Origin: Candidatus Aminicenantes bacterium
GTDB lineage: Bacteria; Acidobacteriota; Aminicenantia; Aminicenantales; JAFGBC01
NCBI GenBank assembly: GCA_963702005.1
Contig: OY969696.1
Coordinates: 4,032,001-4,096,000, forward strand
Direction of reading: 5' to 3'
Length of the DNA stretch: 64,000 nt
This document shows, piece by piece, positions 42,642 to 47,393 of this stretch (position 1 is the stretch's first letter; every line of letters begins with the position of its first letter). The notes beneath the pieces are model-generated. The model was not told the origin of the DNA. It did no database searches and worked only from the letters and a program-made list of their open reading frames with translations. The translations under genes and the position numbers were made by a program.

Positions 42642-42841
42642 GGTCCCTCCCTATAAAAGACCTTCTAAAGCAAATACGCCCAGGACTTCCAGAAAGTTTA
42701 CGCTCTTTTTTAGAATAAGCGCCGGTGCCGGACGAACAAGCTCCTCCATCATTTTTTTCGATCAGGTAACGAATAGGCGGGGATTCATGTATTATCTTAT
42801 ACATGATCTCTTTTGAGCCGCTCGGGCATAAGGAGGCCGCT

Positions 42842-44329
42842 ATGAAGTCCAAAATCTTCGCCGCTCTCATGATCTGTCTGTTTCTTACCGGAGCCCTCTG
42901 GGCCCAGCAGCCCGGCGAGCAGAGCTACAGCGACAGCCCGAGCCTGCTCCAGGGGATCAAGGGCGAGCGGGTCCGGTCCGTCATCGACACCATAAACTCG
43001 AGCGACCCGGATCGAGTCCGCCGTTTTATCAACGAGGAATGCACCGGCTCCTTCCGGACGGGTATTCCGATGGACGAGCACGTCCAAACGCTTTTGGGAT
43101 TTTTCCGGCAAACCGGGGGCGTCGATTTCTTCGGCATCCGAAGCTATGTTCCCGAACGCAAGGGCGAAACCGTCGTTATCGTCAAGGACCGGAACCTGGA
43201 AAGCTGGTGGGGCATCACGCTCCGCTTCACGGAGAGCCCCGAAGCCCTGATCCAAGGCATCGGAATCAGCCCGGCTCGCGCGCCGTCAGGATTGAAGGAA
43301 GCGCCCCTGACCGAAGGCGAGTTCGCCGCGCAAACCAAGGCGCTTATCGACAAGCTCATTGCCAAGGGCGCATTTTCGGGGGCTCTCCTGGTCGCCAAGG
43401 GCGACAAAGTGCTGCTGACCTCGGCCGGCGGAGAAGCCAGCAAGGCCTTTCACGTCCCGAACAACGTCGACACCAAGTTCAACCTGGGATCGATGAACAA
43501 GATGTTCACCTCGACGGCGATCATGCGGCTGGTCGAACAGGGAAAACTCTCTCTCGACGACCCGATCTCCAAGTTCCTGGACGAGTCTTGGCTTCCTAAG
43601 TCCGTAACCGAAAAGATCACAATCCGCCATCTCCTGACCCACTCCTCCGGGCTGGGGAGCTACTTCAACGAGACCTATGACAAGAGCTCCCGGGCGCTCT
43701 TCCGCAAGCTCGACGACTACAAGCCCCTGATCAAGGACGACCGGCCGGCCTTCGAACCGGGCAGCCGCTTCCAGTACAGCAACACCGGGATGTTCCTGCT
43801 GGGCGTCGTCATCGAGAAGGTCACCGGCCAGGGTTATTTCGAACACATCCGAAAGGCCATCTACGAACCGGCCGGGATGACGAACAGCGACTCCTACGAG
43901 ATGGACGTCCCGGTCGAAAACCTGGCCATCGGGTACAGCCCCGATCCGTCCAGTCCCACCGGCTGGAGGAATAACCTTTATACTCACGTCATCAAGGGCG
44001 GTCCGGCCGGAGGCGGGTTCTCGACGGTCAAAGACCTCCACAAATTCGCCCTGGCCCTCCTGGCCGGGAAATACGTCTCTCCGGAGAGCCTGAAGATGAT
44101 GTGGACGGACCACCTCAAGGCCAACTACGGCTTCGGGTTCACGGTCGACCAAGGCCCCGCCGGCAAGGTCGTCGGGCACAGCGGCGGCTTCAGCGGGATC
44201 AACTCCGAGCTCGATATCTACCTGGATTCCGGGACTATCGTCGCCGTTATGTCCAACATCGATATGGGCGCGAGCCCGCTCGCCCGCAAGCTCGGCCAGT
44301 GGCTGGCCCGGGTCGGACCTGCGAAATAG
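42842..44329 (+). CDS. Serine hydrolase (beta-lactamase family, S12)
   Basis: SMNK (SxxK), LLTHSSG, YSN, GHSGG; signal peptide. Confidence 0.92.
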   Translation: MKSKIFAALMICLFLTGALWAQQPGEQSYSDSPSLLQGIKGERVRSVIDTINSSDPDRVRRFINEECTGSFRTGIPMDEHVQTLLGFFRQTGGVDFFGIRSYVPERKGETVVIVKDRNLESWWGITLRFTESPEALIQGIGISPARAPSGLKEAPLTEGEFAAQTKALIDKLIAKGAFSGALLVAKGDKVLLTSAGGEASKAFHVPNNVDTKFNLGSMNKMFTSTAIMRLVEQGKLSLDDPISKFLDESWLPKSVTEKITIRHLLTHSSGLGSYFNETYDKSSRALFRKLDDYKPLIKDDRPAFEPGSRFQYSNTGMFLLGVVIEKVTGQGYFEHIRKAIYEPAGMTNSDSYEMDVPVENLAIGYSPDPSSPTGWRNNLYTHVIKGGPAGGGFSTVKDLHKFALALLAGKYVSPESLKMMWTDHLKANYGFGFTVDQGPAGKVVGHSGGFSGINSELDIYLDSGTIVAVMSNIDMGASPLARKLGQWLARVGPAK

Positions 44330-44364
44330 TCAAACCCTCGACACTTCTATGATGGCGAAACGCA

Positions 44365-44520
44365 AGCCCCGAGAGTCTTTTTTCTTATCTTCGTTCCTTA
44401 TGGCTGCCTCGGTTTCTTGAACCACCCTTCTATCCGCGCCTCTAAGCGCACTGTAATATCCGGTCTCGGCTCCTAAACCTCATGGAGAACGCGACTCTCG
44501 CGAGTCCGTTAAGTGTCGTC
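44365..44520 (-). ncRNA. Putative bridge RNA/seekRNA of the IS1111-type element
   Basis: Two hairpin-centred loops whose flanks match the target (CGACACT, TCCATGAG) and the donor (ATATTAC, ATAGAAG); RNA ends are approximate. Confidence 0.8.
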
Positions 44521-45552
44521 CTAGGCAGCCGATCGATTCATGTCCGGGAGATACGTTCTTTTCTCGGTCAAGATGCGATAGATAATGGTCAGGAGCCGCC
44601 GCGCCACCGCGATCTTGGCCGCGTTCGGCCCCTTCCGCCTGGCCAGCCGGTTGTAGAGGACTCGAAGTCCTAGGTCTTTCTTGATCGCCGGATAGACCGC
44701 CTCCAGCGCCGCCCATCTCAGCCAGGCGCTCCCCTGTTTGGTGATCCGCCCATGATATGTCCGCTCTCCCGACGCATAGGTCGAAGGAATTACCCCGGCG
44801 TAGGAGTGAAGATGGGCCGGACTGGAAAACCGTTGGATATCCGCGATCTCCACCGCGACCAGTACCGCCAGCGTCGTGGCAAAACCCGGGATGCTGTCGA
44901 TGCGGGAGGCCTCCTCGATCGTTCCATACAAGGCTTGGACCCTTCCATCCGACGCCTTGATATGAGCTTGGGTTTCTTGATGTCCCCGCAGAAGATCGTC
45001 CAAGACCATCTTGTCCGGTCCCTCCAAGGGAAGCCGGCTGAGGAACTCGATCCCGCGGCCGCTGAACAGCCCGCCCGTTCGCTTGTCCACCTCCAGCCGG
45101 ATCTCTTCCTTCTGCTGAGCCAAGAGCGCCCGGATCTTGTTCTTGATTTCCGTCTGGATCCGAACCCAATAGGCCCGGGCTCTCAGCACTCTTTGCGCTT
45201 GCCGGTTCGCCTCGCCTCGTTGATAGATTTCCGGAATCAGGTCCGCCCGTAAAAGCTGGGCCAGTGTCCGGGAATCCCGCTTGTCCGTCTTGATCCGGGC
45301 ATGGGCGATCGCTTTGACCTGAAGCGCATTCGCCATTTTCACCTCGCCGCCCAGTTCCCTGAGAAGATCCGCCATCACATAGGAGGACCGCCCAGCTTCG
45401 AGAACGGCCGTGAACGGATGAAACCCCTTGAGGAAGGTCTCGACATTCCTCCTGAGGTTGAAGACGCGCCCCGTCTTCAGTTCCCGTCCGTCTTCGGCCA
45501 GAACCGTCAGCTGAGAGGCTTGCTTGTGATGGTCGACACCGATAAAATACAT
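44521..45552 (-). CDS. IS110-family DEDD recombinase/transposase
   Basis: IGVD, LEAG, KTDKRD, SIPGF, YAGVIP...ASG (catalytic Ser region), AVARRLL. Confidence 0.95.
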   Translation of the reverse strand: MYFIGVDHHKQASQLTVLAEDGRELKTGRVFNLRRNVETFLKGFHPFTAVLEAGRSSYVMADLLRELGGEVKMANALQVKAIAHARIKTDKRDSRTLAQLLRADLIPEIYQRGEANRQAQRVLRARAYWVRIQTEIKNKIRALLAQQKEEIRLEVDKRTGGLFSGRGIEFLSRLPLEGPDKMVLDDLLRGHQETQAHIKASDGRVQALYGTIEEASRIDSIPGFATTLAVLVAVEIADIQRFSSPAHLHSYAGVIPSTYASGERTYHGRITKQGSAWLRWAALEAVYPAIKKDLGLRVLYNRLARRKGPNAAKIAVARRLLTIIYRILTEKRTYLPDMNRSAA

Positions 45553-45641
45553 CTGCGCACCTCCTTAAAAGAATTTGAGTCGACGTGTAATCTATCACAG
45601 TATTACCCGTCAGGGAGGTGCGTTTCGCTATCATGTTACCT

Positions 45642-45815
45642 CATGGAAGCCCTGAGTGCAGGCGTTTCGCAGTACTCATACTAAACGGGAAACGGTTTAG
45701 TATGGGTGCTGCAAGGCTGCTACCGGGCATGAAGGCCGGCACTCATAAGCCGTTTCCGGCTTATGGGTACTGCGAAACCGCCGCACTCATGAACCGGAAA
45801 CGGTTCAGCGGTTAA
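45642..45815. repeat. REP-like hairpin cluster, the remainder of the element interrupted by IS110
   Basis: Hairpins 45669-45712, 45739-45770 and 45790-45807; nested IR 45661-45680/45762-45782; shares sequence with 16857-16941. Confidence 0.85.
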
Positions 45816-45944
45816 GACCTCCCGTCAACCTGTTCGAAACTCTTCGGGCGCATTCCCACCCCTGTGGCTTGGAGACTTTTTGAATGAGTGCTGCATGCTT
45901 AGTGTGCCCCGTCCTATCCTCCGGGGAGGACCCCCTCAGGCGGG

Positions 45945-47393
45945 TCAGCGCTTCAACAGGGTCGGAGGGCCCTCGGGGATAAAAGGCTTGTAGACCACGC
46001 CCTTGGTTTTCTCCCGGAATTCGGCCTGAACGGCCTCGAGGATCTTGGCGTCTTCGAACAGGTCCACCATCGTCGTCGCCAGAGCCTTGGCCGCGTAGAC
46101 CAGCCCTTTGTGGCCGATCGACATCCCTCCGCAGGCGACGACGGGCCAGGCGTGCCAGGGAGCGTCCACGGGCGCCGTAGTGGCGTTCATGCTCAGGGTG
46201 GGAACGATCCAGCTCACGTCGCCGACGTCCGTCGAGCCGCCTTCCGGATCCGGCTTCGGCGCCGACCACGGCTGGACCGCGCCGTCGAGGCCCTTCGGGT
46301 CTATGCCCGTCGCGCGCTGGATCTCTTTGGCGAATTCCTGCTCCTCCGGCGTGAACTTGATCGGGCCGAGCCTCATGAGGTTGGCGAACATCACTTTTTC
46401 CCCGGTCAGGTTGACGAGGGTCTCCCAGTTGCCCCCCTGCACCGTGATCTTCGATTCGACTTCAGCCATCATGGCCGCACCCTCGGCGATCCGGCGCGCC
46501 CAGGCGAGAAGCTGCTCCACCCCGGCCCCCTTCGAATCGCGAAGCCAGCACCAGAGCCTGGCGTAGGCCGGCACGACGTTCGGCACGTCGCCCCCGTTCA
46601 GAATCGAGTAGTGCATTCGGACGGTGGGCTTGACGAATTCGCGCATGCGGTTCAAGCCCGTGACGAAGAGCTCCAGAGCGGCCACCGCGCTGCGGCCGTT
46701 CCAGGGGTCGCCCGCCGCGTGCGCGGTTTTGCCCTTGAACTCCAGGATAAAGTCGACGATGGCCTGCGAGCCGTCAACGGAGACCCGGGTCTTCTCGTCG
46801 GGGTGCCAGGCCAGGCAGACATCGAGGTCCTTGAAGAACCCCTCCCGGATCATGTACACCTTGCCGCCGACGGCTTCTTCGGCGGGCGTCCCGTAGAACC
46901 GGATCGTCCCCTTGAGTTTGCCCGCGGCCATCAGGTCCTTGACGGCCAGGGCGGCCCCGAGGGCCGCCGTGCCCAGGAGGTTGTGCCCACAGCCATGGCC
47001 CGGCGAACCGGCCTGCAGGGCTTCCTTCACAGGCTGGACTCTCTGGGACAGGCCCGGCAGGGCGTCGTATTCGCCCAAAACTCCGATGATCGGCCGGCCC
47101 TCCCCGTAGCTCGCCACGAACGCGGTCGGCATGCCGGCCACGCCGCGTTCGACCGTGAAGCCTTGTTTTTCGGCATAGTCCGCGAGCAGCTTCGAGGAAC
47201 TCGTCTCCAGCAAGGCGGTTTCGGCGAACGCCCAGACCTGATCGCTCAGGCCGATGATTTCGGTTCTGTGTTTTTCGATGGAGGCAACAGCTTCCTCTTT
47301 TTTCTTGACGGAGGCGCCGGCCGCCAGCTGGGAAATAATCAACAGAGCGGCGAGCAGGACTACGGCGTTCGGAAGACGTGTTTTCATCGGCAT
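45945..47393 (-). CDS. M20 amidohydrolase, AbgB-like, secreted
   Basis: EYDALPG, HGCGHN, GTPAEE, WHP, GSTDVGDVSW. Confidence 0.9.
   Translation of the reverse strand: MPMKTRLPNAVVLLAALLIISQLAAGASVKKKEEAVASIEKHRTEIIGLSDQVWAFAETALLETSSSKLLADYAEKQGFTVERGVAGMPTAFVASYGEGRPIIGVLGEYDALPGLSQRVQPVKEALQAGSPGHGCGHNLLGTAALGAALAVKDLMAAGKLKGTIRFYGTPAEEAVGGKVYMIREGFFKDLDVCLAWHPDEKTRVSVDGSQAIVDFILEFKGKTAHAAGDPWNGRSAVAALELFVTGLNRMREFVKPTVRMHYSILNGGDVPNVVPAYARLWCWLRDSKGAGVEQLLAWARRIAEGAAMMAEVESKITVQGGNWETLVNLTGEKVMFANLMRLGPIKFTPEEQEFAKEIQRATGIDPKGLDGAVQPWSAPKPDPEGGSTDVGDVSWIVPTLSMNATTAPVDAPWHAWPVVACGGMSIGHKGLVYAAKALATTMVDLFEDAKILEAVQAEFREKTKGVVYKPFIPEGPPTLLKR

Follow-up and report, generated by a model that had tools for sequence, protein, structure and literature searches.

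RNA-guided insertion sequences of the IS110 family, including those of its IS1111 group, have been described and assayed since 2024, and this system class is already known. A 64,000-nucleotide stretch of the genome of a Candidatus Aminicenantes bacterium (GenBank assembly GCA_963702005.1, contig OY969696.1, positions 4,032,001 to 4,096,000 of the forward strand; hereafter the window) raises the question of whether an element of this kind resides in an uncultured lineage and whether its address can be read from its own non-coding DNA. The original prediction, made from the letters of the window, was that an intact IS1111-type recombinase with target and donor guides in its non-coding RNA lies at positions 44344-45641, and that it is active and reprogrammable. 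Our analysis indicates with high confidence that this locus is an intact IS1111-group member of the IS110 family, composed of one recombinase gene followed by a guide RNA, with a proposed two-loop guide mechanism.

An IS1111-group element with a CT core

The insertion sequence occupies window positions 44344-45641. On the plus strand, the left junction reads CGACA-CT-TCTATGAT (44339-44353) and the right junction reads ATGTTAC-CT-CATGGA (45633-45647); all junction and guide strings quoted in the original prediction are present where it placed them. Empty sites (TCGACA-CT-CATGGAAG) carry a single CT and occupied sites carry one CT at each junction. Because the empty sites have only one CT, the inserted DNA is 1296 bp long. 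The predicted interval therefore located the element correctly, but at 1298 bp it counts the CT core twice. The predicted empty target, CGACA-CT-CATGGA, exists as such in the genome, with 12 exact empty sites that each hold one CT. Sixteen-bp subterminal inverted repeats are set 3 nt in from the core at the right end (RE) and 5 nt in from it at the left end (LE), and a comparison of 20 distinct arm pairs from 78 elements shows parallel changes of the two arms at several positions. In 12 full-length relatives from other genomes, nucleotide homology ends exactly at the proposed termini (9 of 12) or within 3 nt of them (3 of 12). The RE terminus reads ...ATCATAGA-AG in all of 18 elements except L017, which ends in GG. 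Most of the non-coding DNA lies on one side of the gene, with 175 nt downstream (44346-44520) versus 87 nt upstream (45553-45639).

The only long open reading frame (ORF) with a family match is 44521-45552 on the minus strand. Residues 4-146 of its product match PF01548 (DEDD_Tnp_IS110; E = 9.8e-16), residues 216-293 match PF02371 (Transposase_20; E = 6.1e-19), and the protein scores 195.6 bits against the NCBIfam model NF033542, "IS110 family RNA-guided transposase" (cut-off 140). The DEDD and serine residues are intact, as had been claimed: D7, E52, D90, D93, S261, and G262 are invariant in an alignment of eight relatives that reaches down to 37% identity and leaves out two distant loci, L021 with an interrupted frame and L026 with a short one. 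The catalytic residues of IS621 are given as D11, E60, D102, D105, S241, and G242 (PMC11208158), and D7, D90, D93, and S261-G262 align with their counterparts in this set. The HMMER pairwise alignment shifts E52 by one column; since E52 is invariant and L51 is variable in the eight relatives, we assigned E52 to E60 of IS621. The sequence relation to the solved IS621 and ISCro4 recombinases is weak (E about 1e-8). However, when an AlphaFold model built from the eight relatives (mean predicted local distance difference test score 81.9) was searched with Foldseek, ranks 1-10 were all IS621 and ISCro4 chains, aligned over the full length with E values of 2e-13 to 8e-12, template modeling scores of 0.53-0.63 and ~21% identity. 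The low-confidence loops of the model, residues 81-91 and 257-273, hold D90 and S261, and in IS621 the loops at the equivalent places are mobile. Finally, a tblastn search of 72,556 plasmid records returned 2054 matching records, all below 60% identity, with a best match of 42%. The window protein is therefore not a close copy of an element from cultured bacteria.

The IS110-family features that we tested are all present: the domains, the catalytic residues, the fold, and site- and orientation-specific insertion with a core dinucleotide. Placement in the IS1111 group draws on four features, namely the inverted repeats, the downstream non-coding region, the length of the recombinase, and its motif. 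IS1111 elements are described as having subterminal inverted repeats of 7-17 bp with short terminal extensions (PMC11208160) and recombinases of 330-350 amino acids with a GL-P----S(t)G motif (PMC11187229); the 343-residue recombinase of the window has G253-V-I-P256-S-T-Y-A-S261-G262 (GVIPSTYASG). Their guide RNA is reported to lie downstream of the gene and to have its top-strand match on the 5' side of its bottom-strand match (PMC11187229), and IS1111 bridge RNAs have been predicted in the RE (PMC11208160). Collectively, the two Pfam domains, the NF033542 score, a fold nearest to IS621 and ISCro4, the inverted repeats, and the downstream non-coding region bear out the predicted IS110/IS1111 identity.

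Three lineages in three palindromic repeats

The genome, a single contig of 4.31 Mb, contains five elements of this family and no other. L002 is 100% identical to the window copy over 1298 bp and L003 differs from it at 5 positions, so that three near-identical copies (99.6-100% identity) with intact reading frames are present. L004, a paralogue at 80% identity, measures 1332 bp and has an open frame, and L005 is a decayed copy with ~109 bp of the gene missing. The three near-identical copies share their site and orientation, GTCAAnCCnTCGAcA-CT-CATGgAAgCC. The original prediction implied that other copies would be flanked by the same sequence; the flanks of L002 are exact and those of L003 depart from them at 2 of the 13 guide-covered positions. 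Elsewhere in the genome there are 12 uninterrupted copies of the 16-mer TCGACACTCATGGAAG, each within the same dispersed repeat, and the 13-mer target was found 12 times versus 0.12 expected from base composition. Only 2 of the 14 exact target sites are occupied. The target is a repetitive extragenic palindrome (REP)-like palindrome because the site forms the 5' arm of a hairpin, CACTCATGG-AAG-CCATGAGTG.

L004 sits in a different REP-like hairpin, GCAGTA-CT-CATACT (target GCAGTACTCATACT), and has the guide windows GCAGTACT and TATGAG at the same two positions as the guides of the window copy. L005 shares a third target, ATCCCGCGA-AG-GGGATTG (recombinase orientation), and both guide windows with L007, an element of another genome, and the windows of L005 fit its own site only partly. 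The genome thus holds three element lineages, each in a different dispersed palindromic repeat family. The third repeat family (…GGACTnACGTCCGTGGAATCCCGCGAAGGGGATTG) has an 18-mer core in 10 exact copies, and the insertion point lies in its hairpin loop. The related loci are labelled Candidatus Aminicenantes, and the host lineage is uncultured.

Guide windows track their targets

Behind the recombinase stop codon, two short segments, G1 (CGACACU) and G2 (UCCAUGAG), match opposite strands of the 13-bp target CGACA-CT-CATGGA and overlap at the CT core. In recombinase orientation, the 5' segment, CGACACU, is complementary to the top strand, and the 3' segment, UCCAUGAG, to the bottom strand. The order on the minus strand is CGACACT, TAACG, GACTC-GCGA-GAGTC, GCGTTC, TCCATGAG, and conserved spacers set the guides apart from their hairpins (TAACG and GCGTTC here, AG and G in the second loop). 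A single instance of the pattern CGACACT-N20-35-TCCATGAG exists in the window, and 0 of 100 dinucleotide-preserving shuffles produced one. Loop 1 thus matches opposite strands of the two target halves, as had been proposed.

Natural relatives provided an independent view of these guides. A genome collection yielded 24 loci, of which 13 full-length ones were used, and metagenome contigs yielded 80 loci, 60 of them with both ends; 50 of these 60 were usable (6 had flanks shorter than 12 nt and 4 failed the scaffold pattern). The resulting 68 insertions were reduced to 50 that were distinct in both guide pair and target. The score of each guide pair covered 13 flank positions, 7 belonging to the first window and 6 to the second, with the core excluded. 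The first 13 lineages matched 9.77 of 13 positions in their own flanks versus 4.25 in the flanks of others. Over all 50 distinct pairs, the values were 9.84 and 4.44 (standard deviation 1.98); the own flank was strictly best in 30 of the 50 and tied for best in 8, and the own-flank total was reached by 0 of 100,000 permutations. The two guide windows are hypervariable, one lying directly behind the stop codon and the other between GCGTTC and GGTTTAGG. Relatives with 80-90% identical proteins and an invariant scaffold have unrelated targets that track both windows. In this comparison of natural sequences, the tracking of flanks by guides is the equivalent of a guide swap and rules out both chance and a target read purely by the protein. 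The predicted reprogrammability and separate specificity are borne out to this extent, by natural variation in 50 distinct relatives. The loop length is 10 nt in most relatives and 11 nt in the group of L039, L042, and L048.

A conserved RNA scaffold that begins inside the gene

The guides are embedded in an RNA scaffold that is invariant at 41 columns in an alignment of 77 sequences. The original prediction had pointed to fold and covariation analysis with homologs as a check. On the 77 sequences a two-loop model has 98.4% of its cells paired, with double changes at 8 pairs versus 2.1 in shuffles, and slid controls of the same model are 28-46% paired. The stem that closes the target loop, P1, is 98.6% paired. 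The target-loop hairpin has both-side changes at 6 of 9 pairs and, in most relatives, a GCGA, GAGA, GGGA, GCAA, or GUGA tetraloop. The donor-loop hairpin is 99.7% paired, with compensatory changes at 1 of 5 pairs and a freely variable loop. The third hairpin is 97.4% paired with one-sided (wobble) changes only, and the 77-sequence comparison does not distinguish it from an alternative long arm. Conservation stops past this hairpin at ~44411, and the stretch between that point and the RE repeat is a variable, A-rich spacer. From 14 sequences, RNAalifold proposed an outer stem, GCUGCCU:AGGCAGC, together with a three-way junction; this stem was discarded because on the 77 sequences it was 86.5% paired and had no compensatory change.

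The 5' strand of P1 overlaps the recombinase gene, using its last four codons and the start of the TAG stop codon. With this strand inside the gene, the RNA has no promoter of its own outside the gene, and it would most simply be a processed 3' part of the recombinase transcript; processing of a guide RNA from the transposase transcript has been proposed for ISEc11 (PMC11187229). The predicted RNA range of 44365-44520 covers the guides and is too short on its 5' side, where the structure starts at 44532. Speculatively, a stem built from the last codons and the stop might link the folding or release of the guide to translation of the mRNA. An nhmmer search of this genome with the 77-sequence profile found the RNA in the five elements only, with no orphan copies. 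In one metagenome relative (L076, 1617-1757), 7 nt are missing around the conserved GGTTTAG of stem P1 and the linker, and its RNA may be defective or of a variant architecture.

A model for guided insertion

We infer RNA production and processing, RNA-protein binding, the circle intermediate, the junction promoter, and the chemistry from ISEc11, ISPa11, and IS621. In the resulting model, the guide RNA most likely derives from the 3' end of the recombinase transcript and would fold into two loops, each closed by a stem and each containing a hairpin. When the RNA is bound by the recombinase, G1 and G2 would pair with the target's two strands and place a recombinase tetramer whose composite Ser/DEDD sites exchange strands at CT. 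A second dimer would hold the joined ends of the excised circle, and the second loop, with its arms D1 (AUAUUAC) and D2 (AUAGAAG), would be positioned to read these joined ends in a similar manner. Through the subterminal inverted repeats, the protein probably contributes to recognition of the ends as well. A palindrome present in many copies would offer many harmless landing sites. Furthermore, joining of RE to LE in the circle would space TTGCGT and TAACAT by 17 nt, and the junction could in this way assemble a promoter, with a weak match to consensus (7/12).

Public sequencing runs

Of the 24 public sequencing runs listed, 20 carry part of the stretch, each with a share below 0.5, and we examined four of them (X1, X2, X4, and X20). 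These gave short contigs, mostly from relatives. A loose end at 45640 in X2 was considered as an empty allele and rejected, as its left flank is that of another genomic copy of the repeat. X20, a sediment metatranscriptome and the sole RNA run, yielded 13 contigs, none of them at least 99% like the window, and is uninformative on transcription of the window copy. Over 44394-44570, contigs of X20 are 90-95% like the scaffold and derive from relatives; the summed word depth peaks in the bin 44405-44465, at 51 versus 2-4 over the gene, and DNA carry-over could contribute. This is only a hint that scaffold-type RNAs of relatives are abundant.

Weighing the alternatives

Several results count against the reading of the locus as a two-loop RNA-guided recombinase. 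A scan of the relevant (minus) strand found no sigma-70-like promoter and no terminator. Rfam held no matching family, its sole match being a chance hit to a flavivirus frameshift element (E = 0.95) outside the element, and a single-sequence fold of the non-coding region was no more stable than shuffles (z = -0.10). Stem P1 has one compensatory change only, from U:A to C:G. None of the four runs X1, X2, X4, and X20 contained a piece across a junction, a circle junction, or a polymorphic site. Own-flank scores are poor, at 5-7 of 13, in 5 of the 50 lineages (L005 6, L031 7, L053 5, L068 6, and L070 7), and the position of the core within G1 shifts by one nucleotide between two subgroups, which our simple model does not account for. 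In the second loop, D1, when compared with LE bases 3-9 in reverse complement, has 4 of 7 matching positions in 2 elements, 5 in 16, 6 in 25, and all 7 in 8 (51 elements), and it is followed by variable dinucleotides in place of the core. The score of L053 can be traced to its context: downstream of its position 1806, a second RE-like tail (…GGGGCTTGCGTTTC) lies ~30 nt past the first end, which suggests a nested or tandem arrangement. As to the two subgroups, G1 ends in CTT in 36 of 51 guide pairs, with the core usually at -3/-2 (better in 23, tied in 8, worse in 5), and in CCT, TCT, or CGT in the other 15, where the core lies one nucleotide further 3' (better in 13).

The donor-loop reading is only partly supported by the comparisons. 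It is possible, although we consider it the lesser possibility, that the element and its target loop are as described and loop 2 is not a donor guide. In that case the recombinase would read the ends via the inverted repeats, a short RNA comprising P1, the target loop, and its hairpin (~70 nt) would suffice, and ATATTAC and ATAGAAG would be scaffold or protein-binding sequence. The 4-7 matches of D1, with a plain mismatch at position 2 (C opposite A) in 24 of 51 elements whose end sequence is unchanged, and the missing core behind D1 fit this alternative. So does the report that an 82-nt short seekRNA of ISEc11, which lacks the loop 2 part, was sufficient and was better for transposition than the long form, from a source whose authors also stress the inverted repeats as a family difference (PMC11187229). 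D2 is identical to the RE end at 7 of 7 positions in 48 of 51 distinct elements, and this identity says little because both sides are nearly invariant and leave no co-variation to test. On the other side, D1 and D2 mirror G1 and G2 around a hairpin (minus-strand order ATATTAC, AG, TGCGC-TTAGAG-GCGCG, G, ATAGAAG), and when the non-coding region was shuffled 200,000 times, a donor-type pair, with at least 6 of 7 matches in the first arm and an exact second arm 8-30 nt on, arose only 70 times. At the sole variable end position, D1 follows the end or is wobble-compatible with it in 45 of 51 elements (13 T/T, 21 C/C, 11 wobble, and 6 mismatched; Fisher p = 0.007, uncorrected for relatedness). Discontinuous pairing of one IS621 donor guide and donor-complementary loops in IS1111 members such as ISPa11 have also been described (PMC11208160). 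The 6 of 7 matches of D1 in the window copy, on which the original prediction of a donor guide drew, are weak when taken alone. We also considered that the variable positions of D1 track the target in a handshake-type role; this was rejected, since L005 and L007 share a target and differ in D1.

Two further alternatives concern the element as a whole. The matches of the target guides could be non-functional, with a protein that reads the REP-like palindrome and matches that arose by chance or by capture of target sequence. All three lineages of this genome do lie in palindromic repeats, which a protein could also read. However, neither the window shuffles nor the family-wide permutations reproduce the pattern, closely related proteins with an invariant scaffold sit in unrelated targets that follow their windows, and a captured target would not yield matches on opposite strands around a hairpin; we consider this explanation extremely improbable. 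Alternatively, the window could hold a recently silenced or immobile copy, intact in anatomy and no longer transposing in its host. In keeping with such a copy, the runs examined showed no circle junction, polymorphic empty site at the locus, or transcript, few of the exact target sites are occupied, and only five family elements, one of them decayed, are present in 4.3 Mb. Against it stand two copies that are 100% identical over 1298 bp and a third with 5 differences, frames that are open in all three copies and in L004, the full set of catalytic residues, and guides that still match the flanks exactly. Silencing thus appears unlikely, and an intact, guided element remains our preferred reading. 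As for the predicted activity, we infer it solely from the three 99.6-100% identical copies with intact frames.

Feature map and surroundings

The coordinates of the element and its flanking target halves are collected in Table 1.

Table 1 Features of the element and its insertion site, in window coordinates
Feature	Position	Strand	Basis
Target left half CGACA, in REP-like dispersed repeat	44339..44343	+	Same flank in L002, CGATA in L003, 12 exact empty sites
CT core copy, downstream (RE) junction	44344..44345	.	Core single in empty sites
RE terminal extension, 3 nt (AGA in recombinase orientation)	44346..44348	-	Junction sequence, ends of relatives
Subterminal inverted repeat, RE arm	44349..44364	.	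15/16 complementary to 45619-45634
Candidate -35 hexamer TTGCGT	44365-44360	-	Within RE repeat; putative
A-rich spacer, poorly conserved, from RNA scaffold to RE repeat	44365..44410	-	Conservation falls past third hairpin
Conserved non-coding RNA scaffold (seekRNA / bridge RNA), ~122 nt	44411..44532	-	77 distinct relatives align
Third hairpin GGUU-CAAGA-AACC	44411..44423	-	Helix 5
Donor-loop arm D2 ATAGAAG, equal to last 7 nt of RE including core	44427..44433	-	
Donor-loop hairpin UGCGC-UUAGAG-GCGCG, variable 6-nt loop	44435..44450	-	Helix 4
Donor-loop arm D1 ATATTAC, 6/7 identical to + strand end ATGTTAC (45633-45639)	44453..44459	-	
Stem P1, 3' strand UAGG-AGCCGA	44466..44475	-	Helix 1
Target guide G2 TCCATGAG, reverse complement of core + right half (CT-CATGGA)	44479..44486	-	
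Target-loop hairpin, GNRA-type tetraloop GCGA (GACUC-GCGA-GAGUC)	44488..44510	-	Helix 2
Target guide G1 CGACACT, equal to + strand left half + core, pairs with opposite strand	44512..44518	-	
Recombinase gene, 343 aa: RuvC-like DEDD domain, coiled coil, Tnp domain with S261-G262	44521..45552	-	
Stem P1, 5' strand UCGGCU-G-CCUA	44522..44532	-	Helix 1, 98.6% paired; reading frame
Shine-Dalgarno-like AAGGAGGTG, 5 nt ahead of ATG	45558..45566	-	Sequence reading
Subterminal inverted repeat, LE arm	45619..45634	.	15/16 versus RE arm
Candidate -10 hexamer TAACAT	45638-45633	-	LE end; putative
LE terminal extension, 5 nt (GTAAC in recombinase orientation)	45635..45639	-	
CT core copy, upstream (LE) junction	45640..45641	.	
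Target right half CATGGA, 5' arm of REP-like hairpin CACTCATGG-AAG-CCATGAGTG	45642..45647	+	

The element lies between two convergent genes, 42803-44329 (plus), encoding a PF00144 serine hydrolase/beta-lactamase-family protein of 508 aa, and 45945-47393 (minus), encoding an M20-family peptidase of 482 aa. The stop codon of the PF00144-family gene is 14 nt from the insertion, and the target repeat starts directly past that stop. To the right of the element, 45642-45830 is a cluster of REP-like hairpins, and an unoccupied target of the L004 lineage, GCAGTACTCATA, is present at 45669-45680, 28 bp from the element end; this 12-mer, GCAGTACTCATA, has 15 exact copies genome-wide versus 0.26 expected.

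A 384-aa ORF in another frame (44480-45634, minus) overlaps the recombinase gene; it starts in the LE repeat, spans the whole gene, and ends in the RNA. An ORF with the start MIAKRTSL is the longest one in 5 of 18 elements (the window copy, L002, L007, L011, and L024). In L004 the overlapping ORF is 360 aa long and differs in its start but has a similar end, and in L003 the ORF is lost by a 1-bp deletion. The overlapping frame is probably a by-product of the GC-rich coding sequence.

A pool of addresses and its wider meaning

The co-resident lineages have nearly the same ends, inverted repeats, and donor loop, and differ essentially in their two target windows. One metagenome relative has a mixed guide: the 141-nt RNA region of L031 (ends 293 and 1600) equals that of the window copy except in G1 and in the last base shown. 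Its G1, CAGTACT, is of the L004-lineage type, yet its site, CGACA-CT-CATGAA, is of the window type. This hybrid could reflect guidance in trans, an exchange of guide windows, or an off-target insertion. From the near-identity of the co-resident lineages outside their windows we raise the idea, which is speculative and rather unlikely and which L031 fits, that guide RNAs act in trans on each other's circles or that windows are exchanged by recombination, so that one recombinase platform would serve a pool of interchangeable REP addresses.

The locus adds a readable RNA-guided IS1111-type recombinase from an uncultured lineage, which extends the known picture to a new host group and leaves that picture unchanged. 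It also opens a natural series, with at least 51 distinct guide pairs borne by a scaffold of ~120 nt that hardly varies, in which free and fixed positions of the RNA can be told apart. Such a series could aid the choice or engineering of compact orthologues and help to establish whether the second loop of IS1111 elements reads the donor. Finally, three related lineages coexist in one genome, each directed to a different REP-like repeat.

Comparison with known systems

The closest parallels are the IS1111 elements with seekRNAs, ISEc11, ISPa11, ISKpn4, and ISPst6 (Siddiquee et al. 2024, PMC11187229). As described there, these have recombinases of 330-350 aa with a G-x-x-P-x4-S-G motif, subterminal repeats, terminal extensions, and a long downstream non-coding region, and two opposite-strand matches that overlap at the insertion point in the same order as in the window element. 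The same source relates ISEc11 and ISXne4 as a case of natural redirection by replacement of the guide windows alone, which resembles what we find among the relatives here. In contrast to the seekRNA elements, the window protein is distant (42% identity to its best plasmid match) and its host is uncultured, the end of the coding sequence forms part of the stem that closes the RNA, and the element is known from sequence alone.

IS621 and ISCro4 (Durrant et al. 2024, PMC11208160; Hiraizumi et al. 2024, PMC11208158; PDB 8wt6 and 9t56) resemble the window element in the three-domain fold and the composite site of DEDD and Ser-Gly. They also share the CT core, a REP-type target, and a two-loop RNA with opposite-strand arms (PMC11208160). 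With CT on the top strand, the 5' arm equals the left half plus core and the 3' arm equals the core plus right half, as in the left and right target guides (LTG and RTG) of IS621 (PMC11208160). However, the window protein is only about 21% identical to these recombinases, its RNA lies downstream and not upstream of the gene, and gene and RNA are inverted relative to the frame of the target. Furthermore, the subterminal repeats measure 16 bp in the window element and 2-3 bp in IS621 and ISCro4, and one donor arm of the window RNA lacks the core and tolerates mismatches.

REP-like targets, too, are already known, from IS621 and from ISPpu9 and ISPpu10 of Pseudomonas putida. The latter two are reported to be present in several copies at one REP position and to have a small RNA gene downstream of the transposase (PMC12288879), as in the window element. 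Unlike in ISPpu9 and ISPpu10, the window-type RNA is present only inside the five elements (nhmmer, this genome) and its guide windows track their targets.

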